A stretch of 64,000 nucleotides of DNA from Candidatus Giovannonibacteria bacterium (GCA_016186825.1 JACPKW010000005.1:66025-130024); one strand, 5' to 3'; shown: positions 1 to 57,275, counted from the first letter of the stretch. The notes: generated from the letters alone by a model not told the origin. Program-made: numbers and translations.

Positions 1-859
1 CTATGCCGTCATCATGTGTTTTCAAAATACTTCCTGCGGCAATCGGTGTCAGAACAACAATGAGTGAAACAAATATTGACTCATCAAAAACTTTTAATTG
101 ATAATTCAAAAAAATAATCAGCGGGAAGATAAGAACTGTAATTAAATTTCCAACCCAATCGCCTTTTTGCCAGACGTATCCGTGCGCAAGTAAATGCATA
201 TGTCTCTGAATATTTCTTCTGCGCTCTGGCCAGCTTTGATGTTTTGCTTGCATAGGCATAAGCATAATCACATACCAAACATTTGAAATTATATAGAGAA
301 ATGCGGCGCCGGCGAGAATGAAACTCAGCAAAGATGACTCTCGATTTCCCGAAGATCCAAAAAAGATTTGATAAAAATCTCCGAAGGCAAAATGCATTAA
401 GCCGATTGCGATTACGATAAGCGAAAACCAAACGTAAAAAAATACCTGCCAATTGAAGGATGCGTCAATTCCCGAAAAGCCGTTTATTAATGTAATTAAT
501 GTCGGGATTAAAAACAGCCCGAAAAGAAAATATGAAAAACCAAATCTGTCGTAGATCAAATATAGTAAAAGAATATTGAAAATTAAAATTGTTCGAGCGC
601 CGATACGAGAGATCAGGCGATGGCGAAAAATTCCAGTGAAAAAGGATGCCCCGAGCAAAACTGTCAAAAATAAATGGAAACTTAAATTGTACTCATTCAA
701 ATTTTCACTCCTTGCGGGGATCATTCCTAAAAGTCCGCCTCCAAAAGCAATTAAAAAACCTTTCCAATCTTCTTTTTTTAAAGTCCCGCTGAGCATCAGA
801 AAGGCCTGAATAACCATTCCTATTGCGAACAAGAGCACTCCAAATAAATTAACATCCAT
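1..859 (-). CDS. Polytopic membrane protein of unknown function. Start ATG at 859-857; the ORF runs off the window at position 1, so the C-terminus is missing.
   Basis: Manual translation of the minus strand gives a continuous hydrophobic ORF (MDVNLFGVLLFAIGMVIQAFLM...). Frame checked at positions 481 and 61. It is absent from the ORF track, presumably because no stop codon falls in the window. Confidence 0.4.
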   Translation of the reverse strand, partial: MDVNLFGVLLFAIGMVIQAFLMLSGTLKKEDWKGFLIAFGGGLLGMIPARSENLNEYNLSFHLFLTVLLGASFFTGIFRHRLISRIGARTILIFNILLLYLIYDRFGFSYFLFGLFLIPTLITLINGFSGIDASFNWQVFFYVWFSLIVIAIGLMHFAFGDFYQIFFGSSGNRESSLLSFILAGAAFLYIISNVWYVIMLMPMQAKHQSWPERRRNIQRHMHLLAHGYVWQKGDWVGNLITVLIFPLIIFLNYQLKVFDESIFVSLIVVLTPIAAGSILKTHDDGI

Positions 860-3236: not shown

Positions 3237-5156
3237 TTAGGGAGTAATTTCACGCACGCTCATTTTTTTATAGATGAGCCCATTCGTTCCAACATTGTCG
3301 CTTCTCCAATAAACGGAGATGTTAGGTTTTCCTGATTCTGTGCCGGGACGTGCGTCCGAATTCGTCAGACGGAGCGCCGGATCAATTCCGGATTTGCAAG
3401 CTGTTCCGCCAATGCCGAAGTTAGAACCATTATCAATCAACTCGTTTATTTTTCGCCATGTTCCGCCATTTGCGCCGTCGGTTTCATCGAGCCACAATTC
3501 GAGTTTTACATTTCCGTCCGGCATATCATAGACAACATATTTGTATCCGATCCAAACGCTTTTTGGAAGTCCGGAAGACCATTGCGTTTTATTTAATGTC
3601 GGGCGCGAATTCGGATGGCTTGTTTCTTTCTCGAAGTCGATATGTCCGTCATAGCGCATCCGCGCCCCGATTCCCCGTGTATCGCAAAGATTCGCGGTCT
3701 CGCTTCCGGTTATTCCGTGGTTCGTTCGCGCGATCCCAACGATTCCGCCGTAAGCCGTTCCTCTGTCGGCAATACGTTTTGCATAAACGGTCATCTCAAC
3801 ATTGCGCCAGCTTGAGACTTTTGCGGGATCATGAATGTACATCCGCGGAACGGATCCGGATATTTTGAAAAGACCTTGGCCATCCACGCTGTAGAACGCA
3901 TTGCCATGATTTGCATCAAACCAGGAATCGTAAGGATCAACGCCGGTGAAATTTCTTACAATACCGTTATCCCATTTCGATACCCATTCCTTCCCACCCG
4001 AAATGGTTGGATATAATCTTTTAATTCCGAATTTGTCTGTCGCAGTTGAAGTTACTGGTTCCGGAGCAGGCGCGGAAATCAGAGTTGCCACGGGAGTCAC
4101 GGAGATATTGCAGACCCAATGAGATCCGCTCGAAGCGTAGAGATTTATTTTTGAGAGACTCGTTACATTAGCCTGTTCCGTTCTGAAAGCATAACCTAGC
4201 CCGAGAGTTTTTTCAGTTGATCCGGGAGAGGTTACGTATATATCGTAGAGGTGATTAGGAATATCCACGACAAGACGAAACTTGTACGAATTTCCGGCAG
4301 AGTAACTTATAACTTGAGACGCTTTGTAGGTTGAGCCGGAGCGCGCATCAATTTTTCCTAAGTTGTTGAAGCGAACGATTGCAGCCATATCTGGATAATC
4401 AGAGACAACCCCGCTCGAAAGTCCTGTAACGCCGTCCATGTAATTTGATTTCGGGGTGCTGTCGAAAGTCAATACAAATTTTCCCGTTTGCGTAGAGATA
4501 GTGTTTGCTTGCCAGCTTGAAGCGCTCGAGACAGTGCATGAAGTTCCTGCATCACTCGAAACCAAAGCGAGCGAGGGATCCGAAACTGTCGAGACTGTTT
4601 GAGTAACTTCAGACCCAACCGCTAAATTGCAAACTGCATGGCCGCCGCTTGAAGCAAAGACATTTACTTTAGAAAGGCTCGTTATATTAGCTTGTTCCGT
4701 TCTGAATGAATAATCGAGGCCGACAGTTTTTTCATCCGAATTCGGCGGCGTAACATAAATGTCATAGAGATGATTTGCTAAATCAACTTCAAGACGGAAT
4801 TTATACGTGTTCCCCGCAAAATACGGGAGCGCATTTGCTGCGCCGTAGGTTGAGCCGGAACGCGCATCAATATTGCCGGAAGCGTTGAAACGCACAATCG
4901 CAGCGAGATCCGTGTAGTCGGAAGCGGGCAAATTCGATAATCCCGTAATGGCATCGATATTATTTGCGCTGGGAGTGGCGTCGAACACGACAGTAAATTT
5001 ACCCGTCTCGGTAGCAAAAGACTGCGCCTGCCAACTCGATTTGGAATCAAGACAGGAGTTATCCGCTGCGGATAATTTTTGATTTAGATTTGTGAAAGTG
5101 CTGAATAAAAGAATTAATGTTAATAATGATACAGATGATTTTTTTACGATTTCCAT
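3237..5156 (-). CDS. Secreted protein (639 aa). It has an N-terminal signal peptide, two tandem ~170-aa internal repeats and a C-terminal beta-jelly-roll/polysaccharide-lyase-like domain.
   Basis: Signal-like N-terminus [21 protein letters not shown]. Two near-identical repeats ([22 protein letters not shown]... and [22 protein letters not shown]...). C-terminal segment [13 protein letters not shown]...[11 protein letters not shown]. Confidence 0.55.
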
Positions 5157-7073: not shown

Positions 7074-7556
7074 TCAATCTGCGGCTTTTTTCAATTGATC
7101 AATATCAATTTTTTTCATCTGAAGCATAGCTTTCGAAACTCTTTTGGCTTTTTCAGGATCCGGATCGCTCATAAGCTCGCCTAAAATTGCCGGAACAATT
7201 TGCCAGGAAAGTCCGAATTTGTCCTTCAGCCACCCGCACTGCTCCGCCTCTTTCACCGCAGAAAGTTTTTCCCAGAAATAATCTATGTCTTTCTGCGAGT
7301 CACAATTTACAACAAAAGATATTGATTCGTTGAATTTGAAAACGGGGCCGCCATTAAATGCAAGAAATTGCTGCCCTTCAATTTCGAAGGGAATTACCAA
7401 CGCAGATCCAACGGGCATTTTGGCCGCCTTCGCAATTTCTTCGTCATAGTAAGTTACCTTGCCTTTTTTTGAATTTTTAAAAATAGAAATGTAAAAATTC
7501 ACCGCCTCCTCGGCATTATCGTCAAACCACAAAAATGGAGTAATTTTTTGTTGCAT
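7074..7556 (-). CDS. VOC-superfamily protein, PhnB/3-demethylubiquinone-9 3-methyltransferase-like (PF06983-like)
   Basis: ITPFLWFDDNAEEAVNFYISIF N-terminus characteristic of the PhnB-like family. About 160 aa. Confidence 0.65.
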   Translation of the reverse strand: MQQKITPFLWFDDNAEEAVNFYISIFKNSKKGKVTYYDEEIAKAAKMPVGSALVIPFEIEGQQFLAFNGGPVFKFNESISFVVNCDSQKDIDYFWEKLSAVKEAEQCGWLKDKFGLSWQIVPAILGELMSDPDPEKAKRVSKAMLQMKKIDIDQLKKAAD

Positions 7557-7696
7557 ATAAATATTCTTAACTATAAATATGCAAAAAAAGTTTTTCTTCG
7601 CATTTGCATAAATTGAAAAGAAGCCCGCCTAAGTATAGAACATAAGCGGGCCAACTTTTTAAATTTTTTATCATCTTACGGAGAAACCGTCTTGAG

Positions 7697-9007
7697 TTAG
7701 AACTGATATTTTCGCGGAAAATAGAGCAAGTCTTTAGTAAGCAAAACTGGCATATCCGGAACTGTGCCCTTAATTTCCTTCGCCTGCTCAAGCGCGACAG
7801 TCCCAGGAGGCGGCCTTTCGGGTGTTAACTTACTCCCCAGTGGAATGTGGAGATTTTTTTCGATGATAACGCGGTCTAGTGTAGAGCCCGCTCCGACTTC
7901 GACGCCGTCAAACAGAACCGAGTTTGTGATAAAGCTGCCGGCACCGATTATACATCTGCTAATGACGCTGTGGCTTACAAAAATATTATCCTGAAAGATC
8001 GACCCGAATGAGAGCACCTCGTTGCAGGTAATATTATCTGCTTTCGTCGGAAATGCGGCGGCTTGCGTTACGCCGAAAAGCGGCCACTTTTCGGAAAACA
8101 TATCAAAGATGGGGTTTCGGCGGCACACTTCCATCTGCGCCGCATACCAGCTTTCAAGCGTTCCGACGTCCCGCCAATATCCGCGGCCTTGCGCTGTCAT
8201 ACCGGGATACTCGTTATCCACAAGGTTATAGCCAATCAGACTTTTTTCATGATGTATCAGCCACTGTAAACCCGCACTGCTTAACTTTTGAGCGGGATCT
8301 TTCGCGCGCAGTTTCTCAAGGTAGCCAAGCATTCCAAAAAACTCTTCCGATCTGATGACATACATCGCCAGATTAGCCAGGCAATAACCCGGCCGATCCG
8401 CGAGTTCCAATGGCTTCTCTGGTTTTTCTATGAGGTCGGCAACATTGCCATGTCTGTCCAATTCTAATACGCCAAAGTTATTTTTTGCCTCATTAACAGG
8501 TACAGCTTTATAAACCAGGAGAGCGCACGCTCCAGATTGAAATAGTTTTAACACCATCTGGCGATAATCACACTTAACTATTTGATCGCCCATCGCAATG
8601 ATGACGACGGCAGGGTTTTCATCTTCAAAGTATCGGCGCAATTGCAAGAGCGAATCTGCATCACTCTGGAAAAACCCGTTGGCTTCATGCAATGGCGGCG
8701 TCAAGTGACGAATAAAGTGACCGCGCTGGTGCCCGAGCGTTCCGCCGAACGCATCGCCCACATGTCTCATCAAAGATTGCGGGCGGTACTGGACTGCCAA
8801 AAAAATCCTGGAGCACCATGAATTGATAAGATTTGAGAGCTGAAAATCGACGAGGCGATATTTGGCGCCGAAAAAAAGCGCTGGTTTCGCGCGCTCGCTC
8901 GTCAACGGCCATAATCTTGTCCCAGATCCTCCAGCCAGAACAACTCCCAGAACATTTTCCATATTGACAACAAGAAAATCTTCCTTATTCATAATGTTTT
9001 GCGTCAT
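7697..9007 (-). CDS. glgC: Glucose-1-phosphate adenylyltransferase (ADP-glucose pyrophosphorylase)
   Basis: LGVVLAGGSGTRLWPLTSERAKPAL nucleotidyltransferase motif. C-terminal left-handed beta-helix region. About 436 aa. Confidence 0.88.
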   Translation of the reverse strand: MTQNIMNKEDFLVVNMENVLGVVLAGGSGTRLWPLTSERAKPALFFGAKYRLVDFQLSNLINSWCSRIFLAVQYRPQSLMRHVGDAFGGTLGHQRGHFIRHLTPPLHEANGFFQSDADSLLQLRRYFEDENPAVVIIAMGDQIVKCDYRQMVLKLFQSGACALLVYKAVPVNEAKNNFGVLELDRHGNVADLIEKPEKPLELADRPGYCLANLAMYVIRSEEFFGMLGYLEKLRAKDPAQKLSSAGLQWLIHHEKSLIGYNLVDNEYPGMTAQGRGYWRDVGTLESWYAAQMEVCRRNPIFDMFSEKWPLFGVTQAAAFPTKADNITCNEVLSFGSIFQDNIFVSHSVISRCIIGAGSFITNSVLFDGVEVGAGSTLDRVIIEKNLHIPLGSKLTPERPPPGTVALEQAKEIKGTVPDMPVLLTKDLLYFPRKYQF

Positions 9008-9180
9008 TCTTTCCTCCTTCGCCTTGGATATGTTTTTAACGATCCCAGCCGTTTATATCTAATCCCATATTTATAACGCTTCACAGCAAAACAAGTTCAC
9101 GCTTAAAAAGCTTTTCATAAAATCAAAAGCAGTGAAGATTTCGTCAGAAAACATCTAAAAAAGCTGTTATAAAAGCGGCT

Positions 9181-13105: not shown

Positions 13106-13283
13106 CGCGCTGGATGCGGACTAACGGACGGATGCTCTAAATTTTCCACCGAAAACCTTTCGGACACTCTAAAATTTTTCCTCTCCGGACTCAAAACCAC
13201 CAAAGGAATTGAAAGAAATCTTTTTGCTAAAAAGTTTCTTTCAAACATTTTCTATTCCCCCGAAAGCATTAAAATCCGCTTCA

Positions 13284-13440: not shown

Positions 13441-13660
13441 TCGTATCTAGTTTCTTGGCTCCATACCCTGAACGAAATCCGAACGCATTTTCAGGAAACC
13501 TCCGACGAATGAAGCCGCCCCGCCGCCGCTCGCTAACGCTCGCCAGCCAGCAAAAAAGTTTTCTCTGCATTTCTGATTTTGCGCGCGCCGGATTTCTCCC
13601 CCCAACCCCCTCCTGCCGAGCCGTCCTCACGGTTGGCGGTGGCGTTTATTTCTAAATTAT
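13441..13660. repeat. Left terminal inverted repeat (~200 bp) of the cassette; outer terminus TGGCTCCATACCCTGAACG
   Basis: Its reverse complement matches 19010-19265 almost exactly, apart from an ~85-nt insertion in the right copy. Confidence 0.8.
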
Positions 13661-15147
13661 AAAGTTTTATGAAGTGCCTGCCAAATTGAATACATCGCAT
13701 ACGTATCAAGCCCACAATATATTTTTAGATCGTTTATGGATTTCTCTTTTTGGGCGTCGTTAAAACCGCCACTTACGATTTTATTCCAAGTATCTGCGGC
13801 ACTTCCACCATCTCGTATTTCAAGCTCTTTGTATGATAATTCAGGAACTAAAACAGGCAAAATTCTTTTTATGGAAGTGCCGCCCCTAAAGTCTCGGTGT
13901 ATATGATATTGTTTTCTAAAAATATCTTCCAAGTCATACACGCGTCCTTTCAAGGAATCCATAAACGATTTCATTTCGGGAATTCTAATCGCAATCTCGT
14001 CGTTTCTTCCACACTCAAATCCTTTGTGCCAAACAATAATACTCCCAGTCGTACCCAAATGTTTTTGTAACGATTCAGCAAATGATTTACTCGGATCATC
14101 GGACGCAACGTGTAAAAACTCATAATGTTCCGGTTTGCTTTCCGGCGACTTCAAAACATCAACGGAATATTGGAACGGTATTTGATGGTAGGGGGAAAAC
14201 CCGTCAAATCTTGGAATTGCCGCTGGAAACGTTTCGTAATCTAAAAAATATAAGGGGAATGTTAAAGCATCAAACTCTGCTTTGATTTTTTCTTTTTCAA
14301 CCAAAACTTTATTCAGAATATATGTGTCAACCTGGCCCTGTTGAATATCGGTTAGCTTGATATGGGAAGGAATTTTATCGAGGTGAAAAATATTATTATC
14401 AATCAATTCCTTCAGTTTTGCTTTACTGTTTCCTATGCGCGCTATATCGTGGACGCTATATTCTGGAACTTCTGGATTTGAATGCTGAAAGGTTGAACAA
14501 TGCTTGGAGCGTCCTTTATAAACACAACAGCAATATCCGTTTGGTTTAGTCTCTTGAGAAAGATATTCAAGTGCCCCTTGCGATTCATTGGATACTTCTG
14601 TTGTTAAACTTTCAACTTCGCTAGTGACATCGACAATCTTAAATAAATTTTGAATGTCAAGATCATTCGTTCGCACATATTCCGAATTCAAATGTATTAT
14701 GTATGCCTTGTCGATTTGTAAACCATGCTTTCTTAGTAAGTTAACTTGAAAAGCTAGGTCGTGATAATGAGTTTTGTTATCTACGTCGCTTGTTGATTTT
14801 ATTTCGTATACAAAATAACCACCGCTCTCCGGATTAAACTTCAAAACATCTATTGCCGCCAAAAGATTACCACCAACAAAGACAGGTTGAAACAGGATTT
14901 CTTGATGCTTTGCAATGTAATCCTGCGTAACTTTTTGCCCTTCCTCATCTCGCCGTTCAATTAAAACGCCGCCTGGAAATAATTTCCGCGCTATCAATTC
15001 AACTTCATTACCTGTCTCCATGATGGACTTTTCAAATTCAGATAATTCAGATTCAGAATAAATGTCTGGTCTATGTATTTTATACCAGACATTTTGAGGG
15101 CATTCTCTATAAAGAATATAATCAGTTTTTGTAAGTGTAATAGTCAT
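13657..15147 (-). CDS. DUF2779-family protein: N-terminal Cas4/RecB-like PD-(D/E)xK nuclease with a Cys cluster plus a C-terminal DEDD (RNase H-like) exonuclease-like domain
   Basis: N-terminus TKTDYILYRECPQNVWYK (DUF2779-like). CCCVYKGRSKHCSTF cysteine cluster. YFLDYETFPAAIPRFDGFSPYHQIPFQYS (D-x-E) and YCGLDTYAMY at the C-terminus. Confidence 0.65.
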   Translation of the reverse strand: MTITLTKTDYILYRECPQNVWYKIHRPDIYSESELSEFEKSIMETGNEVELIARKLFPGGVLIERRDEEGQKVTQDYIAKHQEILFQPVFVGGNLLAAIDVLKFNPESGGYFVYEIKSTSDVDNKTHYHDLAFQVNLLRKHGLQIDKAYIIHLNSEYVRTNDLDIQNLFKIVDVTSEVESLTTEVSNESQGALEYLSQETKPNGYCCCVYKGRSKHCSTFQHSNPEVPEYSVHDIARIGNSKAKLKELIDNNIFHLDKIPSHIKLTDIQQGQVDTYILNKVLVEKEKIKAEFDALTFPLYFLDYETFPAAIPRFDGFSPYHQIPFQYSVDVLKSPESKPEHYEFLHVASDDPSKSFAESLQKHLGTTGSIIVWHKGFECGRNDEIAIRIPEMKSFMDSLKGRVYDLEDIFRKQYHIHRDFRGGTSIKRILPVLVPELSYKELEIRDGGSAADTWNKIVSGGFNDAQKEKSINDLKIYCGLDTYAMYSIWQALHKTL

Positions 15148-15148
15148 A

Positions 15149-18100
15149 TTAAGATTGTATCCATCCTTTATCTTCTAGCTTTCCAATGACAATGCGTCCG
15201 ATTGTCGCATTATCTTGAAATGAGTAGATCAATCCAGCATGGCGTGTTTTCAAGCCAATCCATGTTTTTACTTCTAGCGCAACCGCCAAATTTTTACCAT
15301 CAGGTGATAGCTCGGCCGCCTCAACTTTGCATTTTCCACCCTTTAGCGAAGCGGACACATAATCGTTTATCGTCTGCCATAACTCCGGCTTATCAGATTT
15401 TTTCCTTGTTCCATTCAAAAGATTGAATAACAAATCTAGATGAAATGGGGCTTGCGTGGAAATAAATTCTGAATATACAGGTACCCCTGTCAGCTCGCAA
15501 TCTTTTAGATCTTCGGGATGACATTTGCGACCACTCCACGAACAAGACCTTGCTTCCGAAGGAGAACAGAAATTCCCAATAATAGAACGAACGGCTTCAG
15601 TTTCAAGGAGGGGCGCACCAGACAAGTTGCTGAATATAAATTCTTGCTTATGGCCCGTCTTGCCAGAAACAACAGATTTTAGCTGTTCATCGTTTCGATA
15701 TTTTTTCCCCGATATTTGGCTAACTGCCAATTCACTTTCAAGAACTTCTGATTTAGTGAATTCACATATTCCAAAATATTGCGCTTCGGCACGCTTCCCA
15801 CTTAGAACCGATGTCTTTAAAAATTTTTTAGCAACCATCTCTCCGGTTACAGCTGATTTTTCCGCCTCATCAACCAAAACTCGCTTCTGGCTGAATGCAC
15901 AGAGAACAGTGTGCTCTGGATATGCGAACCGACTACTTATCTCCGATTGGACCAGAAAATGTCGAAGTGCAACTTGTTTAGTAATAGCGCATTGACCGAG
16001 ACAGTCGCGGGGTACTACCTTGCCGGATTTCATACATTTATCCATTTCAGGCGATATCACCTTTGTCGAAAAAGGAGTTATGGTCAATAGACTTCTATAT
16101 TCGCCGCCCTCATCAAATTTGTATGACACTCTTGTTTTCAAATCTCTATGAACGGTGCCTTCAAGACCAACCAATGAAATTTCTAATCTGGGAGTAAATT
16201 CGTCTTCAAGTTTTTTCTTTTTGCGTAGATCGTTACCCGCCGAGGCCATTTCCTGCTCTCTCCTCTCGGTATAAAAGCGACAGAAATCCAAAATATTTGG
16301 ATCTTGCATTGCTTTTTCTGCTAACTTTTTAGAAATTGCACCTATTGTCGTGGGGTTTTCTATTTGAGCACCTATCGGCTCAAGTCCAATCTTGGTAACA
16401 AAGTTGAAATGTTCTTCTGGAGAACATTCAACCTCAACCAATCGCTCATAACTATCATGAGCCACGGTTGCACGAACTCTTAACAACGCCTTACCTGCAA
16501 AATGCCTCGATACGTCTTGTATATCAATTTCTCTAAAATCTGCCCCGAAATTTTTGACCCAATCATTTGCAATTTTCTCGGCTCCCATGTGAGGATTTTG
16601 ATCGTTATCGTCCACGAGATGCAATCCGACATTTGTAACCTTACTCACAAGGCGTTCAAATACTGCCGTACCGGGAGCGTACAAAATACTTTCTTCTTTG
16701 CCGCTCAAGGTATTGTTATCAAATCGAATTAACTCTCTTTTTCCACCGAGATGCGACACGACCATATTGCCATCTTCCTTAAGTTTCGCACCAAAATCAG
16801 ATAGAGCAGTTAATACAAAAGTGCGAGCATCTATGGTGTGCTCTGTCTGCGGTAGTTTAGGACAGCGCGGACCAAAATCCTGCATGTCTCCCATACCGCC
16901 GAGAAGTGAATTAATGTTCTTTTCTTCTTTTTCTAGCTCTGATTTTGCGTTTTTTATACTTTCTTCGGCTTGCTTGGTTGCTCGCTCCACGTCCTTACCC
17001 GCTAGCGAAGCAACGACTAATTGTCTTATCTTCTCCTCAAAGCCACTCGATCCATTTTCCTCTCCCTCGTCGATTCCCGACGCTTCAAGCAGAGCCTCAA
17101 TGTCTCCGATTGCATGAGATGCCAACTGCAATTTTTCCATTAATCTGCCAACAATGTACTCCTCAAAAGTATTTTTTAAGACGATGTTAAAAATAGATAC
17201 GTTTTCAAAATTAGAAGACAATCGTTGAATACGACCGATACGTTGTTCAACGATCATCGGATTCCATGGTAAATCATAATTAACTAGAACGTTTGCGGCT
17301 TGTAGATTGATACCCTCTGAACCAGCTTCGGTTGATACAATAACGTGAATTTCGGGTAAATCCTTCTTAAACTTCGCAATAGTTTCTTGGTTCCTAGTAT
17401 TAGAATCACCGTTTATAAGTCCGCAAGAAATTTTTTCTTTTTCAAGAAAACTTTGTATTGCTGTTTGAGTTTCGCGCCATCGAGTGAACACAACTAACCG
17501 CCACGTGTCTGGTTGTTCCACTCTTAGTTTTTCAATCAAAGCACTAAGTCCTTTTAATTTTGTCGTTGTCTTAATGTCTTTCGCAATTTCTTTAACATCC
17601 TTTGCTAAAGATTTTGGCGCGGTATCCTTTTTCGCCATTCCTTCTAGTAGTTTAACTAGCGCCTCGGGGCTACTTACAAGTGCTTGTAAGATTACTATCT
17701 GCGAAAGGTAATTTAGTTCTTGGATTGGTTTCGCAATTACCCTGAAAAGATCTAACTCCTTTTCAGATGGTTCAACTTTATGCATCAGAACTTTTCTTTC
17801 AGGGAAGTGGAGCTTTGCGTCTCCTCTGCGCACACGAGACATATATCCATAGACAATCGAGCGAAATTCATCACGCATTTCCGGTTTAAGTTGGCGTGCA
17901 GTAGTCCGACTATCGGCTATAAATTTTCGAGCGAATGTACCTTGATTGCCAAAGGGATTTTCATGACCTCGTGCAACGGTTAATAAATCCACCAAGGAGT
18001 AAAGATCCCAGAGACGATTTTGTATTGGGGTAGCAGTTAGCATCAGAACATATTTGAATAACCTATCAGAAAGCGCCTTGCGAAATCTTTGTGCAACTTG

Positions 18101-18667
18101 TGGTGTAGGGTCAACGCCGTAAAGATTTCGCAGTTTGTGTGCCTCATCAAGTATCAGCATGTCGAAGCCGTCCTGTTTGATTCTATCGAGATACAATCTA
18201 GCGGTGTTATAAGTTGTTATCACTGCTCCCGTCTCCTCGGGAGGTTCTGCAGTGATAAGTTCTCTGCCGGTAACAATCACTGAAGGGATATCGAATTTAA
18301 CATCCAATTCCTCTTTCCACTGCTCGCGGAGTATTTTCGGGCAGACCACCAATATTTTCGAAATCCTTCCTCGTGAAATGAGTTCACTTACAACCAATCC
18401 GGCACTTATTGTTTTTCCAAGACCAACATCATCTGCCAACAAAGTGACCGGAAGACGACGGCAGAAAGAAATAAGATTTGTAACTTGATGATGGTAGGGC
18501 TCAACACGATCGCGCCATTTACTTTCCGATCGCATATCCTCCCTATCTTCAATAACGATAGGTTCAACCAAGTCCCACTCAAGAGCAGCCCGATACAAAC
18601 CATACTTTTCTGGAGTAGAAGCTCTCTTTAGTGTTCTTGTCTGAAATGGTAGCTGAGATAAATCCAT
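15149..18667 (-). CDS. SNF2/Swi2-family helicase (N-terminal ~530 aa) fused to an uncharacterised ~640-aa Cys-containing C-terminal region
   Basis: Motif I LADDVGLGKTI, motif II LILDEAHKLRN, motif III LTATPIQN, motif VI QRIGRIQR. The C-terminal half has no recognisable motifs. Confidence 0.85.
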   Translation of the reverse strand: MDLSQLPFQTRTLKRASTPEKYGLYRAALEWDLVEPIVIEDREDMRSESKWRDRVEPYHHQVTNLISFCRRLPVTLLADDVGLGKTISAGLVVSELISRGRISKILVVCPKILREQWKEELDVKFDIPSVIVTGRELITAEPPEETGAVITTYNTARLYLDRIKQDGFDMLILDEAHKLRNLYGVDPTPQVAQRFRKALSDRLFKYVLMLTATPIQNRLWDLYSLVDLLTVARGHENPFGNQGTFARKFIADSRTTARQLKPEMRDEFRSIVYGYMSRVRRGDAKLHFPERKVLMHKVEPSEKELDLFRVIAKPIQELNYLSQIVILQALVSSPEALVKLLEGMAKKDTAPKSLAKDVKEIAKDIKTTTKLKGLSALIEKLRVEQPDTWRLVVFTRWRETQTAIQSFLEKEKISCGLINGDSNTRNQETIAKFKKDLPEIHVIVSTEAGSEGINLQAANVLVNYDLPWNPMIVEQRIGRIQRLSSNFENVSIFNIVLKNTFEEYIVGRLMEKLQLASHAIGDIEALLEASGIDEGEENGSSGFEEKIRQLVVASLAGKDVERATKQAEESIKNAKSELEKEEKNINSLLGGMGDMQDFGPRCPKLPQTEHTIDARTFVLTALSDFGAKLKEDGNMVVSHLGGKRELIRFDNNTLSGKEESILYAPGTAVFERLVSKVTNVGLHLVDDNDQNPHMGAEKIANDWVKNFGADFREIDIQDVSRHFAGKALLRVRATVAHDSYERLVEVECSPEEHFNFVTKIGLEPIGAQIENPTTIGAISKKLAEKAMQDPNILDFCRFYTERREQEMASAGNDLRKKKKLEDEFTPRLEISLVGLEGTVHRDLKTRVSYKFDEGGEYRSLLTITPFSTKVISPEMDKCMKSGKVVPRDCLGQCAITKQVALRHFLVQSEISSRFAYPEHTVLCAFSQKRVLVDEAEKSAVTGEMVAKKFLKTSVLSGKRAEAQYFGICEFTKSEVLESELAVSQISGKKYRNDEQLKSVVSGKTGHKQEFIFSNLSGAPLLETEAVRSIIGNFCSPSEARSCSWSGRKCHPEDLKDCELTGVPVYSEFISTQAPFHLDLLFNLLNGTRKKSDKPELWQTINDYVSASLKGGKCKVEAAELSPDGKNLAVALEVKTWIGLKTRHAGLIYSFQDNATIGRIVIGKLEDKGWIQS

Positions 18668-18672
18668 AGTTA

Positions 18673-18873
18673 TTACAGCAATTCACTCGGTTTGACCCCA
18701 AGTGCTTTGGCCAATTTTTCAATATTTTTTAAAGCCATATTTCTGACCCCGCGCTCAATGCCGGAAATATAGGTTGGATGCACACCTAAAATCTTCGCGA
18801 GGTCTCCTTGCGACATCTTCTTCTGTAGACGCAACTCTTTTACTTTTTTGCCAAACTTAACGGAAATATCCAT
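18673..18873 (-). CDS. XRE-family (Cro/CI-type) HTH transcriptional regulator, first gene of the operon
   Basis: LRLQKKMSQGDLAKILGVHPTYISGIERG is a canonical XRE HTH. 66 aa. Its stop lies 6 bp from the SNF2 start. Confidence 0.85.
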   Translation of the reverse strand: MDISVKFGKKVKELRLQKKMSQGDLAKILGVHPTYISGIERGVRNMALKNIEKLAKALGVKPSELL

Positions 18874-18906
18874 AGTTTTTCCACTTTATCACATATTGCA
18901 ATATTT

Positions 18907-18932
18907 TTCTATATAGAATAATATTTCTATAT
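18907..18932. promoter_or_regulatory. Candidate operator/promoter of the XRE-SNF2-DUF2779 operon
   Basis: Perfect 12-bp palindrome TTCTATATAGAA followed by a direct repeat ATTTCTATAT, 35-60 bp upstream of the XRE start. Confidence 0.35.
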
Positions 18933-19009
18933 GAGTATCAATGGGAGTTCCAAAAACTTGTCCGCGCACTGGGAGGGTGGGGCAAGGACAAGAAAAGAAA
19001 TAAACGCCA

Positions 19010-19265
19010 CCGCCAACCGTGAGGACGGCTCGGCAGGAGGGGGTTGGGGGGAGGAATGCCGAGCCGTCCGAGCGAATAGAAAAGAGGCCAGCCCCGCCGC
19101 CTGCTCTGTTAGGAGCAGAAGCCAGCCAAAAAGTTTCGCAAAATCAGAAATGCAGAGAAAACTTTTTTGCTGGCTGGCGAGCGTTAGCGAGCGGCGGCGG
19201 GGCGGCTTCATTCGTCGGAGGTTTCCTGAAAATGCGTTCGGATTTCGTTCAGGGTATGGAGCCAA
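19010..19265. repeat. Right terminal inverted repeat of the cassette (copy of 13441-13660 with an ~85-nt insertion)
   Basis: Reverse-complement identity to the left TIR over about 200 nt. Ends in GGAGCCA. Confidence 0.8.
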
Positions 19266-19332
19266 ATTGTATGATACGAGTTCACCGCCTCGGGGCTTCG
19301 CCCCTCGGCGGGCACATCAGCAAGAATTTTCC
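19258..19332. repeat. 75-bp inverted repeat, left copy (GGAGCCAAATTGTATGATACGAG...CAGCAAGAATTTT), flanking the recombinase gene
   Basis: Identical in reverse complement to 20878-20952. Confidence 0.85.
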
Positions 19333-19479
19333 ACGACTTTTTGGGTTCAAAGCAAATCGCTTGCGAGCGCAAAACGTGGTTCGCCGCGCAAAGCGCGGAG
19401 TAAATGGAAATTTACAGCCAATTCTTTTTCTTCCGCCTTCGGCGGAAAGCAAAGCGATAATTTTTAGCCCAAAAGCGAT

Positions 19480-21000
19480 ATGAAATACTTTTTATACATC
19501 AGAAAATCAACGGACGAGGACGACAGACAAGTTTTGTCGCTGGAAGCGCAGGAAACGGAATTGAAAGAATTTGCCTTGCGGGAAAATCTTTTGATCGCCG
19601 CGACTTTCCGCGAATCGCAGACCGCCAAAGAGCCGGGCAGACCGATTTTTAACGATATGCTCAAACGAATGGAGCGCGGCGAGGCCGAGGGGATTTTAGC
19701 GTGGCATCCAGACCGATTGGCGAGAAACAGCATAGACGGCGGACGGATTATTTTCTTGGTAGACACTGAAAAAATCAGATCGCTAAAATCCCCGACATTT
19801 TGGTTTGAGCCGACCCCGCAAGGCAAATTCATGCTCAATATCGCTTTTGGGCAATCCAAATACTTTGTGGATAATCTTTCAGTGAATACCAAAAGAGGGT
19901 TGCGTCAAAAATTGCGCCGAGGCGAATTGCCCGGCTATGCGCCGCTTGGCTATTTGAACGACTTGCTAAAACACACAATCTACAAAGACCCCGAACGTTT
20001 TCGCCTCGTCCGCAAACTTTTTGAACTTTACGCAACCGGAAATTATTCTCTGAAAGATTTGCGGAAGTTGATAACTTCCGCCGGCTTGTTGAGCCGCAAA
20101 GGAAATATGCTTTCCGTCTCCAATATCCAAAATATACTCTCTACTTCATTTTATTATGGCGTATTCAAATACAATGGCGAACTCTACGACGGAAAGCATG
20201 AGCCAATGATTGCAAAGAAACTTTTTGAAGCGTGCCAAAAAGTGATGGCGGATCGTTCGCGCCCGAAAAAGCCGAGCCAAAAGGAATATCCGTTTAGAAA
20301 CTTGCTCAAGTGCGGCGAGTGCGGGTGCGCTATCACTTCCGAAACGCAAAAAGGACATAACTACTACCGCTGTACCAAAAAGAAAGACAAGCAATGTTCG
20401 CAAAAATATATCCGCGAGGAAGTTTTGGCACGCCAGATTTCGGACGAGATTCAAAAAGTTTCTTTGCCTCCCGCTTGGGCGGAGTGGATGTTAGCAGAAC
20501 TCAACAAGGAAGAAGCAGAAGCCGCCCAAGCGGGCGCCGTTTTCGCTCAAAATCTCAAAAACAAAATAAAAGAGCTTGAAGGAAAGCTCGACCTGCTTTT
20601 AGATGCACATTTAGCCAGCACTATTTCGCGCGAGGAATACACCGCCAAAAAAGAGAAATTGATAATTGAAAAGGCCGAGCTTTCCGAAAAATTGAAGGAT
20701 TTTGAGCGAAACGGCAATCATTGGCTCGAACCGGCCCGGCAATTCATTTTAGCGGCTCAACAAGCCAAAATTATCGCTTTGCAAGAAAATCCCGTCACGG
20801 GACGGGATTTTCTAAAAAGAATTGGCTCGAACCACGTTTTGCGCTCGCAAGCGATTTGCTTTGAACCCAAAAAGTCGTGGAAAATTCTTGCTGATGTGCC
20901 CGCCGAGGGGCGAAGCCCCGAGGCGGTGAACTCGTATCATACAATTTGGCTCCCCGGGCAGGATTCGAACCTGCGACCCACTCCTTACACTTATCCCTAA
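19480..21000 (+). CDS. Large serine recombinase (resolvase/invertase catalytic domain, recombinase domain, zinc ribbon and coiled-coil). The last ~40 codons read through the right IR and the tRNA 3' exon.
   Basis: YIRKSTDEDDRQ catalytic Ser motif. CGECGCAITSETQKGHNYYRC zinc ribbon. The ORF end overlaps 20878-20952 and tRNA 20947-20987. Confidence 0.85.
   Translation: MKYFLYIRKSTDEDDRQVLSLEAQETELKEFALRENLLIAATFRESQTAKEPGRPIFNDMLKRMERGEAEGILAWHPDRLARNSIDGGRIIFLVDTEKIRSLKSPTFWFEPTPQGKFMLNIAFGQSKYFVDNLSVNTKRGLRQKLRRGELPGYAPLGYLNDLLKHTIYKDPERFRLVRKLFELYATGNYSLKDLRKLITSAGLLSRKGNMLSVSNIQNILSTSFYYGVFKYNGELYDGKHEPMIAKKLFEACQKVMADRSRPKKPSQKEYPFRNLLKCGECGCAITSETQKGHNYYRCTKKKDKQCSQKYIREEVLARQISDEIQKVSLPPAWAEWMLAELNKEEAEAAQAGAVFAQNLKNKIKELEGKLDLLLDAHLASTISREEYTAKKEKLIIEKAELSEKLKDFERNGNHWLEPARQFILAAQQAKIIALQENPVTGRDFLKRIGSNHVLRSQAICFEPKKSWKILADVPAEGRSPEAVNSYHTIWLPGQDSNLRPTPYTYP
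20878..20952. repeat. 75-bp inverted repeat, right copy. It overlaps the 3' end of the intron-containing tRNA.
   Basis: Reverse complement of 19258-19332. Confidence 0.85.
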
Positions 21001-21271
21001 GTTTCCTTGGGGGGTGGACTATATCATCATCCCTGTTTTTGGATGCGAGGCGCTTCGACCGTCGCTTGTGACGGGCTACTCTCTTTCGAGATAGTCTCTG
21101 AACCTTCCTTCATCTTGCTTCGCAATCCGAAGCTTTAGCGAAAGATTGGCTGCGGATTACCTTAGAAAAATTCTTTAGGCTTCCCGCAATTCACCTCGTT
21201 TTTCAACCGGAATTACTTCCGGAAGCTGCCATTTTTGACAGGGAGTCGCTCTACCGCTGAGCTACCGGGGA
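20947..21271 (-). tRNA. tRNA, best read as Asn(GUU), interrupted by a ~250-nt group I-like intron in the anticodon loop. Exons 21238-21271 and 20947-20987; intron 20988-21237; CCA encoded. Asp(GUC) is the alternative if the boundaries are shifted.
   Basis: 5' exon TCCCCGGTAGCTCAGCGGTAGAGCGACTCCCTGT. 3' exon TAAGGAGTGGGTCGCAGGTTCGAATCCTGCCCGGGGAGCCA, giving a perfect cloverleaf. The intron follows a U and ends in G, and contains P7-like CAGAGACTA ... ATATAGTCC elements. Confidence 0.65.
20988..21237 (-). other. Putative group I self-splicing intron within the tRNA anticodon loop (no ORF)
   Basis: Lies between anticodon positions 35 and 36. Contains GACUA/UAGUC P7-like motifs. Boundaries are a 5' U and a terminal G. 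Confidence 0.5.
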
Positions 21272-21389
21272 ATATCTGCTGATATTATAACTTTCTGATT
21301 CCGTTTTCAACATTTCAGCTCAAAATTGCTCTGAAATTTGCTTTCATATAGAATAAAAAGATAAAAAATTAGCTCTGTTAAACGCATAT

Positions 21390-56877: not shown

Positions 56878-57078
56878 GCTGGGCGAGTGGCGGAATCGGC
56901 AGACCTGCCTGCCGGCAGGCAGGCGCGCTGGTCCACCCTGTTAGAAATTTTAATAAATGAAATATTTATTCAGTCTGGTGCTGGGATGGCGGAATCGGCA
57001 GACCTGCCTGCCGGCAGGCAGGCGCGCTGGTCCACCCTGTTAGAAATTTTAATAAATGAAATATTTATTCAATCTGGT
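56878..57078. repeat. Two tandem ~100-nt direct repeats, each beginning with the first ~24 nt of tRNA-Leu (GCTGGGATGGCGGAATCGGCAGAC) followed by the GC palindrome CCTGCCTGCCGGCAGGCAGG and an AT-rich hairpin
   Basis: Units at 56878-56979 and 56980-57078 differ by a 3-nt indel and one substitution. The third repeat start is the real tRNA at 57079. Confidence 0.85.
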
Positions 57079-57162
57079 GCTGGGATGGCGGAATCGGCAG
57101 ACGCGCACGCTTCAGGAGCGTGTAGGAGAAATCCTGTGGGAGTTCAAATCTCCCTCCCAGCA
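57079..57162 (+). tRNA. tRNA-Leu(CAG), type II; CCA not encoded
   Basis: GCTGGGA-TG-GCG-GAATCGGCAGA-CGC-G-CACGC-TTCAGGA-GCGTG-TAGGAGAAATCCTGT-GGGAG-TTCAAAT-CTCCC-TCCCAGC-A. Discriminator is A73. Confidence 0.85.
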
Positions 57163-57275
57163 CAGGGTTTATCGATTTCTAGCGGGGCAAGGAAGCCAGT
57201 GGGAGCAATCTCGTGGAGGTTCAAATCCTCTCTCGCCCGCCTTTAAAAACTAATTATCAGCATTAATATAATAAA

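Follow-up and report, generated by a model that had tools for sequence, protein, structure and literature searches.

The window analysed here, a 64-kb stretch of a draft metagenome-assembled genome (MAG) of Candidatus Giovannonibacteria bacterium (Patescibacteria group, Parcubacteria group), carries on its minus strand what is in all likelihood a functional tRNA-Asn(GUU) gene split by a 250-nucleotide (nt) group I intron of the IA type, without an endonuclease gene. The intron is known in kind: a catalogue of 2020 already listed subgroup IA introns inserted between nucleotides 35 and 36 of tRNA-Asn (the 35/36 site), splicing was demonstrated for the class in 2026, and the window holds a further example of them. 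The GroEL, UvrA, RNase J and recombinase proteins of the window were exact matches to MBI2610159, MBI2610161, MBI2610166 and MBI2610133, respectively, all from Candidatus Giovannonibacteria bacterium.

Exons, junction and identity of the split tRNA-Asn(GUU) gene

The 5' exon (21271-21238, minus strand) was located exactly by its sequence string and comprised 34 nt (tRNA nucleotides 1-35), including the 5' strand of the acceptor stem, the D arm, the 5' strand of the anticodon stem, and C32, U33, G34 and U35. The 3' exon (20987-20947, minus strand) comprised 41 nt (tRNA nucleotides 36-76), including U36, A37 and A38, the 3' strand of the anticodon stem, the variable loop, the T arm, the 3' strand of the acceptor stem, G73 and an encoded CCA. 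An earlier reading made from the DNA alone (hereafter the sequence-only reading) had placed both exon strings on the minus strand with 250 nt between them, and its coordinates matched exactly. It had also proposed a 75-nt cloverleaf with encoded CCA; joining the exons in silico gave such a canonical cloverleaf, which ARAGORN called tRNA-Asn(gtt). The tRNA body possessed the U1-A72 pair and G73, as in tRNA-Asn, and the predicted spliced junction reads GACTCCCTGTTAAGGAGTGG.

The position of the junction was provided by an intron-less homologue. The tRNA-Asn gene of contig L019 was 73/75 identical to the in-silico spliced tRNA of the window, the two differences forming one compensatory T-stem pair, and it was uninterrupted across the junction (CTGTTAAGGAGT, i.e. 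CUGU followed by UAAGGAGU as RNA, or CTGT followed by TAAGGAGT as DNA), at which the window reads CTGT, then the intron, then TAAGGAGT. The 5' exon of the window was identical to positions 1-34 of this intron-less gene, as well as to the 5' exon of L093, an intron-containing allele described below. All three intron-less homologues (L018, L019 and L020) read CTGTTAA. Because the homologue with 73/75 identity reads through the junction, the insertion is fixed at 35/36, and tRNA-Asp and tRNA-Thr are ruled out. The gene is assigned to tRNA-Asn(GUU), with its predicted intron between the anticodon nucleotides U35 and U36.

Shifted splice sites would yield either a tRNA-Thr(UGU) with its intron at 33/34 or a tRNA-Asp(GUC), and three features of the locus lend themselves to such readings: ARAGORN run with intron detection reported tRNA-Thr(tgt) i(33,250), a two-nt shift likewise leaves a U before the intron and a G at its end, and CUGUC follows the 5' exon in the DNA. 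The ARAGORN run, a check named in the sequence-only reading, did find a split tRNA with a 250-nt intron, but miscalled it as tRNA-Thr at position 33 instead of tRNA-Asn. Such a call is a documented artefact, as ARAGORN and tFind often miscall 35/36 introns as tRNA-Thr(UGU) at 33/34 (PMC13011429), and the sequenced spliced product of a homologue joins at 35/36 (PMC13011429). The geometry of helix P1 also opposes tRNA-Thr, since U35 and not U33 is placed opposite G, U33 being opposite A in 15/15 sequences of the alignment described in the next section. For tRNA-Asp, the 5' exon would have to end in C, and the U1-A72 and G73 body of the window is of the Asn type, whereas the true Asp relative (L010) possessed a G1-C72 body and a 3' exon beginning with CAC. 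The sequence-only reading had likewise preferred Asn to Asp, and the P1 wobble at U35, the terminal G of the intron, the tRNA body and the intron-less homologue agree with that choice. The geometry of P1, the type of tRNA body, the uninterrupted homologues and the published sequence of a spliced product led to the rejection of both tRNA-Asp and tRNA-Thr, and shifted splice sites are considered exceedingly unlikely.

With default ARAGORN settings and the Rfam tRNA model, the tRNA-Asn gene of the window was not detected, and only tRNA-Ser(GGA) and tRNA-Leu(CAG) were found in the 64 kb; the gene is therefore invisible to routine annotation. No second tRNA-Asn was found in the window by ARAGORN or Rfam. 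Upstream of the gene, a consensus scan found a promoter-like site (TTGAAA, 17 nt, TAATAT; 21282-21310, minus strand) ending 10 nt before the 5' end of the tRNA, with a perfect TATAAT 2 nt upstream at the same site. Its match to the consensus suggests that it may function as a promoter.

Helices and covariation of the group I intron

The IA-like intron (21237-20988, minus strand; 250 nt) was delimited by the Rfam group I model, by its homologues and by the intron-less allele. The Rfam check of the sequence-only proposal of a group I intron gave a full-length match to RF00028 with 89.3 bits (gathering score of 50 bits; E=1.7e-21). In the Rfam alignment, the exon and the real P1 and P2 were taken for inserted sequence; the intron in fact starts at 21237. 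The folding energy of the intron was markedly low (z = -3.68 against 200 dinucleotide shuffles, of which 0/200 folded as well), and its minimum free energy (MFE) fold recovered P2, P3, P4, P5, P6, P7.1, P7.2, P8 and P9. Other types of intron were rejected: no group II model scored above threshold in the window, as opposed to the full-length group I match over 250 nt, and the protein-spliced tRNA introns of archaea and eukaryotes are short, whereas this insert has 250 nt and is group I over its full length. No endonuclease open reading frame (ORF) was found in the intron of the window, where the longest stop-free stretch was 45 codons.

Structural support was evaluated on an alignment of 15 sequences (A1), made up of the window, eight ORF-free loci and six published introns. 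The consensus fold that RNAalifold gave for this alignment contained the anticodon stem, P1, P2, P3, P4, P5, P6, P8 and P9, and base pairs were counted on it, with P7 added as a pseudoknot with P3. Paired cells represented 95.5% of the total, compared to 76.4% in column shuffles and 31-42% when partners were slid by 1-3 columns, and compensatory changes occurred in 34/54 pairs; 0/500 shuffles reached the observed values. Absence of structural support for P3-P9 had been named in the sequence-only reading as grounds for abandoning the intron, and this covariation was found instead. The anticodon stem flanking the intron also covaried, at all 4 counted pairs across the homologues.

Both splice sites followed the group I pattern that the sequence-only reading had assumed, with a 5' exon ending in U and an intron ending in G. 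In P1 (21226-21241, minus strand), the exon nucleotides CUGU (21241-21238) and the first intron nucleotide, C1 (21237), pair with the guide GGCAG (21230-21226) across an AAAAAU loop, in line with the pairing of GCAG with the exon CUGU foreseen from the sequence, and a U35.G wobble marks the 5' splice site. The CG/UA/GC/UG pairs of P1 were present in 14-15 of the 15 sequences according to RNAalifold and the pair counts, and the wobble was invariant (15/15). At the other end, the last intron nucleotide (omega-G; 20988, minus strand) directly precedes U36 and was a G in the window and in 14/14 aligned homologues, in which it was followed by TAA (Asn) or CAC (Asp).

Between these ends, the helices of a group I ribozyme were arranged as follows, all on the minus strand. 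The P2 hairpin (CCGGAA-GUAA-UUCCGG; 21207-21222) showed compensatory changes at 6/6 pairs over 15 homologues. The 5' strand of P3 (CGAGGUG; 21192-21198) pairs with its 3' strand (CGCCUCG; 21052-21046), both strands being supported by the pair counts; three of the seven P3 pairs showed compensatory changes and 100% of cells were paired. According to the pair counts, P4 (UGCGGG/UCCGCA) encloses P5 and its loop (21151-21188) and covaries, for example as GCUGG/CAGCA in L093 and GCA_016700315; P6 (GCC/GGU) and its extension P6a (AUCUU...AAGAU, plus an inner stem) occupy 21102-21150, as in the MFE fold. In the guanosine-binding helix P7, the 5' strand GACUA (21096-21092) pairs with the 3' strand UAGUC (21021-21017); the pairing was perfect and invariant in 15/15 sequences, i.e. 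conserved without covariation. The two P7-like elements picked out in the sequence-only reading, CAGAGACUA and AUAUAGUCC, do contain these two strands.

Two hairpins follow the 5' strand of P7. P7.1 (UCUC-GAAA-GAGA; 21080-21091) had a counterpart at this place in 17 of the 18 relatives folded, with compensatory variants (UCCC..GGGA and UCCU..AGGA), L007 being without the hairpin. P7.2 (CCGUC-ACAAGC-GACGG; 21059-21074) is a second hairpin, of unrelated sequence, and the same two-hairpin layout was present in seven relatives (L008, L013, L009, L011, L016, GCA_016699245 and GCA_016700135); the remaining relatives mostly possessed a single hairpin with a large conserved loop, and one had none. P8 (CAUCC-AAAAACAG-GGAUG; 21028-21045), with compensatory changes at 3/4 pairs, is directly followed by J8/7 (AUGAUA; 21027-21022). 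The P9 hairpin (CCCCAAG-GAAA-CUUAGGG; 20995-21012), which includes one C.A mismatch, showed compensatory changes at 5/5 counted pairs.

Relatives, predicted splicing and homing states of the intron

A scan of GTDB (one genome per species) with three core strings of the intron returned 10 loci, nine in Patescibacteria MAGs and one in a MAG labelled Gammaproteobacteria. All 10 were group I introns by Rfam (75-102 bits), inserted at 35/36 in tRNA-Asn(GUU) (nine loci) or tRNA-Asp(GUC) (one locus) with the layout CTGT, intron ending in G, TAA (CAC in Asp), and two of the 10 possessed an HNH-type ORF in the P1 loop. The intron of the window shared its core strings with its homologues, with identities of 62-75% across 14 homologues and of 62-72%, over full length, to six published introns. 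On the Gammaproteobacteria-labelled contig (L012), two intron-split tRNAs were observed (208-411, minus strand, and 3889-4130, plus strand): a tRNA-Asn with a 35/36 intron, and a tRNA called tRNA-Met(cat) by ARAGORN, which is interrupted by a second group I intron.

Introns of this class have been described before. The sequence-only reading held that group I introns occur in only a few bacterial tRNAs (Leu, fMet, Arg and Ile), a view that is outdated: the Williams 2020 catalogue raised the number of intron-split bacterial tRNA settings from four to 21 (bioRxiv 10.1101/2020.01.27.920355), among them, according to the relevant part of Nakagawa et al., Asn.4Ug, an intron after the fourth loop nucleotide with U at -1 and G at omega (10.1101/2020.01.27.920355; PMC13011429). 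In the part of the source available, the 2020 work is a bioinformatic catalogue only, with no experiments. [quoted passage not shown] In their set, 25/28 introns at 35/36 belonged to subgroup IA, four Asn introns encoded HNH endonucleases, and the tRNA-Asn intron of GCA_016700035.1 self-spliced accurately and in a guanosine-dependent manner in vitro, with its junction at 35/36, while its omega-G to C mutant failed to do so (PMC13011429). The window shares with this class the host phylum, the tRNA and the insertion site, the same P1 (CUGU/GCAG with U.G at the splice site), the same 3' junction (...UG before UAA), the core strings and the ARAGORN miscall as tRNA-Thr, and relatives in the class carry an HNH endonuclease in the P1 loop. 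The closest structural twin was GCA_016699245.1 (Paceibacteria), with the same P7.1 and P7.2 layout. The window differs from the published set in coming from a draft Giovannonibacteria MAG, theirs being complete genomes, and its intron possesses two hairpins after P7, whereas the experimentally spliced GCA_016700035.1 intron, to which it is 69% identical, has one, with a large conserved loop.

Similar introns also occur outside tRNAs. Phage introns of subgroup IA, such as those in T4 td and nrdB and in Bacillus and Staphylococcus phages, possess P7.1 and P7.2 and frequently encode HNH or other homing endonucleases, but they interrupt protein-coding genes, not tRNAs. Seven IMG/VR contigs carried group I introns with the same P4/P6/P7 strings as the window, and the scan of viral contigs with the intron core pattern found group I introns, none of them in a tRNA. 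One of the viral contigs (L024, IMGVR_UViG_3300051212_001920; 14 kb) gave 11 separate Rfam group I hits between 4112 and 11909, five of them back to back on the minus strand (7271-8508) with gaps of 12-49 nt; no ORF of at least 80 amino acids (aa) was present across 7220-9150 and no tRNA nearby. By these hits, the contig carries a predicted tandem array of divergent group I ribozymes.

The presence of P7.1 and P7.2 between P7 and the 3' strand of P3 is a hallmark of subgroup IA, whereas introns of subgroup IC3 are without them. On this architecture and on homology to published IA members, rather than on subgroup covariance models, the intron of the window is classed as IA-like. The classical bacterial introns in cyanobacterial tRNA-Leu(UAA), tRNA-fMet, Agrobacterium tRNA-Arg(CCU) and Azoarcus tRNA-Ile(CAU) are comparable in being self-splicing ribozymes of the anticodon loop, with a P1 that includes loop nucleotides, a length of about 200-250 nt and mostly no ORF; they differ in belonging to subgroup IC3, in interrupting other tRNAs at 33/34, 34/35 or 36/37 and in having no P7.1 or P7.2. 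The intron of the window could in principle belong to this lineage (Leu-UAA, fMet, Arg-CCU, Ile-CAU type) and have been transferred to another tRNA, and its P4/P6/P7 core strings are like those of the Azoarcus and Anabaena introns. Moreover, 81% of bacterial tRNA introns are of the IC type (PMC13011429). We nevertheless consider an IC3 origin very improbable: two extra hairpins separate P7 from the 3' strand of P3, tRNA-Asn is interrupted at 35/36, where IA introns predominate in the published set, identical core strings are present in viral-contig introns outside tRNA genes, and the nearest relatives are the published Asn and Asp introns of Patescibacteria, in which no tRNA intron was classed as IC (PMC13011429).

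Alleles with other states of the same intron were present in metagenomes. A metagenome scan made for the recombinase island described below yielded 58 tRNA-Asn genes followed by the same element arm, among which 41 were intron-less (CTGTTAA) and 13-14 possessed a group I intron at 35/36. The L093 allele (3513-4142 on contig Ga0208375_1000003, 706 kb) had exons 75/75 identical to those of the window and an intron of 555 nt, which was 89% identical to the window across 163 nt (the 3' exon plus a 3' portion of the intron) and differed from it in P4 and P7.2 by compensatory changes. Its intron carried an additional 115-codon ORF in the P1 loop, with the motifs CxxC...HH...CANCH and a weak match to the Pfam HNH family (16.9 bits, below the cut-off of 21.4). 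Three states were thus observed on identical or near-identical exons: intron with HNH-like ORF (L093), intron only (window) and no intron (L019). All three states of the classical homing cycle therefore exist; the flanking genes differ among the three alleles. The simplest interpretation of the intron of the window is a homing intron in its endonuclease-free state.

The intron very probably self-splices, by analogy with the homologue shown to do so. Transcription would start from the promoter-like site about 10 nt upstream, and in the precursor, C32-U35 and C1 would pair with the GGCAG guide to form P1, in which the U35.G wobble would sit at the 5' splice site. The guanosine-binding P7 would be surrounded by the folded P3-P8 and P4-P6 domains with P7.1 and P7.2, and an external guanosine would attack after U35. 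The terminal G (20988) would then enter the G site and the free 3'-OH of U35 would attack after it, which would join the exons as ...C U G U U A A... and restore the GUU anticodon. As P10 pairing is negligible, the flanking anticodon stem, which covaries, probably holds the 3' exon in place.

Several points weigh against a functional, IA-type split gene. The Rfam alignment puts P1 and P2 upstream of the exon (to 21331) and the 5' boundary is consequently wrong; the RF00028 model gives no subgroup, and the IA label relies on architecture and similarity in place of a subgroup covariance model. P7 and most of P1 never vary, so that their support is conservation only, and the copy of the window has a C.A mismatch in P9, an irregular P5 and essentially no P10 pairing. 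In addition, the search for a second tRNA-Asn covered 64 kb of the genome, and an intron-less copy could lie elsewhere. The irregularities in P9 and P5, the loss of the endonuclease ORF seen in L093 and the 64-kb view of the genome would also suit a pseudogene, i.e. a decayed, non-splicing ribozyme in a cell where another tRNA-Asn elsewhere in the genome does the work. Such decay is very improbable in our view, as the core helices have all been kept, together with the U.G wobble, omega-G, J8/7 and the two strands of P7, in agreement with the consensus of the family, the exons form a perfect cloverleaf identical to that of L093, and a promoter-like site lies upstream. Where P4 and P7.2 depart from those of L093, the changes compensate each other, an indication of selection on structure. 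Furthermore, part of the published Patescibacteria table lists 0 or 1 detected tRNA-Asn per genome (PMC13011429). Given the self-splicing seen with the 69%-identical homologue, the tRNA-Asn gene of the window very probably splices as well; it probably also provides the working tRNA-Asn of the cell.

The adjoining recombinase island and significance of the locus

The tRNA-Asn gene adjoins a large serine recombinase ORF of 506 aa (19480-21000, plus strand), with matches above cut-offs to the Pfam families Resolvase (PF00239), Recombinase (PF07508) and Zn_ribbon_recom (PF13408), and an N-terminal YIRKSTDE motif that includes the serine. This ORF stays open as far as 13 nt into the intron, and its predicted final ~57 codons cross the inverted-repeat arm (arm B), the 3' exon of the tRNA and the intron end, all in antisense. 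The recombinase belonged to a cluster of 34 members at at least 90% identity, the named ones being from Giovannoni-, Magasanik- and Yanofskybacteria; member lengths were 493-509 aa, a spread consistent with tails set by whichever tRNA allele lies alongside.

Three sites shared the core GGAGCCAA. Site Y (20953-20828, minus strand), a putative attL, consists of the tRNA end, the core and arm B, and forms the right arm of a 126-nt inverted repeat. Site X (19137-19383, plus strand) is attP-like, consisting of half-site A, the core and arm B, and lies inverted inside the island. Site Z (13583-13455, minus strand), at the far end, consists of half-site A and the core followed by arm C, and is a putative attR. 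Half-site A is GC-rich and has a degenerate T-arm-like end. The recombinase is bracketed by perfect 126-nt inverted repeats (19258-19383 and 20828-20953), the right arm of which takes in the last 7 nt of the tRNA, and the cargo is bracketed by a second perfect inverted repeat of 129 nt (13455-13583 and 19137-19265). Cargo genes encoded a restriction-modification-type control protein (18673-18873), a DrmD/BrxH-like SNF2 helicase (15149-18667) and a Cas4-like DUF2779 protein (13657-15147). An additional ORF of 178 aa across site X (18931-19467) had no Pfam or PADLOC match, was rich in Arg, Ser and Ala, and is probably not a gene.

Sites Y and Z, which are directly oriented, resemble an attL and an attR bounding an island of ~7.5 kb (~13463-20945) at the 3' end of the tRNA, with the crossover in its last 7 nt. 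The unoccupied combination, an intron-containing tRNA followed by arm C, was present in L106, where the C flank was 98% identical to positions 13106-13283 of the window. L106 is a qualified rather than a pristine empty site, since it belongs to another genome and arm C is mobile in its turn. Arm C was widespread (>120 metagenome contigs) and goes with a second family of large serine recombinases, 27% identical to that of the window and also flanked by inverted arms; the inverted A/B site inside the island is not predicted by a simple attL/attR model. A 24-nt string of core and arm C (GGAGCCAAGAAACTAGATACGAAC; 13462-13439 of the window, minus strand) was found exactly in >120 JGI and ENA contigs (L030-L149), often directly after diverse tRNA-Asn genes (e.g. 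L041, L045, L052 and L106). From its contexts, tRNA-Asn looks like a general hot spot for such cassettes in groundwater Patescibacteria.

The same nested layout was present in an independent JGI contig (L021), with inverted repeats of 292 nt and 126 nt, both 100% identical, and recurred in part in L016, L020 and L022. An assembly artefact was rejected as the source of the inverted repeats, these being found in independent ENA and JGI assemblies with arms 86-95% identical between arms, a degree of divergence beyond what an error in the assembly graph could create. In L021, the cargo comprised a methyltransferase, an MvaI/BcnI-type endonuclease and a control protein, i.e. a restriction-modification system in place of the SNF2 helicase and Cas4-like nuclease of the window. 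No support was found for an active on/off switch by inversion: the 3' end of the recombinase faced the 3' end of the tRNA in all six contexts of the window recombinase, and the same orientation was observed in the second-family contexts checked by coordinates (e.g. L039, L041, L045, L052 and L101). Independently assembled Logan contigs that included the neighbouring radical-SAM gene (L001-L005; SRR12113385-SRR12113432) all ended 152-466 nt upstream of that gene, in or near the tRNA and its intron and the 126-nt repeat, which is where short-read assemblies would break off if the repeat disrupts them.

The sequence-only reading had set the intron directly beside a recombinase element. The adjacency is real, but a tie between the two was rejected, since the same cassette (87-94% nucleotide identity) also adjoins intron-less tRNA-Asn genes (L018/L021, L019 and L020). 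It was likewise found beside an intron-containing tRNA-Asn in L016. As the cassette adjoins both kinds of gene, the recombinase associates with the 3' end of the tRNA and not with the intron. In this respect it is comparable to known large serine recombinase elements at tRNA 3' ends (phiC31/Bxb1/TnpX-type), with the same Resolvase, Recombinase and zinc-ribbon domains, putative hybrid sites (tRNA/B and A/C) flanking a 7.5-kb insert, a tRNA/C comparator in L106 and a core in the last tRNA nucleotides. Unlike such elements, the island of the window keeps an intact inverted attP-like A/B copy inside, with recombinase and cargo each in perfect inverted repeats of 126-129 nt. We know of no described element with such nested inverted repeats, and a literature search for this layout found no description.

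A bolder reading, to which we give little credence, is that tRNA-Asn of Patescibacteria is a shared landing pad for two selfish elements independent of each other, the IA intron and a family of recombinase islands with an inverted attP-like copy, the second of which may be a new kind of element. On this reading, the internal copy leaves the recombinase and a swappable defence cargo each within perfect inverted repeats of 126-292 nt, an arrangement similar to that of the yeast 2-micron plasmid.

Elsewhere in the window, the intact tRNA-Leu(CAG) gene (57079-57163) has directly upstream of it two partial copies in tandem (56879-57078), each of its first ~24 nt. After each partial copy came the palindrome CCTGCCTGCCGGCAGGCAGG together with ~60 nt common to both, with a period of ~100 nt and 97% identity. 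These copies may be scars of repeated integration or duplication at the 5' side of the tRNA.

With this locus, the published class of Asn 35/36 introns of Patescibacteria is extended to a Giovannonibacteria MAG. It opens no new question on group I introns, the recombinase island being the more unusual object; if the landing-pad reading were true, the island could represent a recombinase-driven way, so far undescribed, of inverting defence cassettes or swapping them, and the intron would stay ordinary. For annotation, standard tools miss the gene or call it tRNA-Thr, so that a genome possessing a tRNA-Asn looks incomplete, and the locus offers a clean worked example in which the intron-less allele fixes the junction. 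For the biology of the family, the occurrence of three states on the same exons is the pattern predicted by an active homing cycle, and it tempers the published view of these introns as largely immobile.

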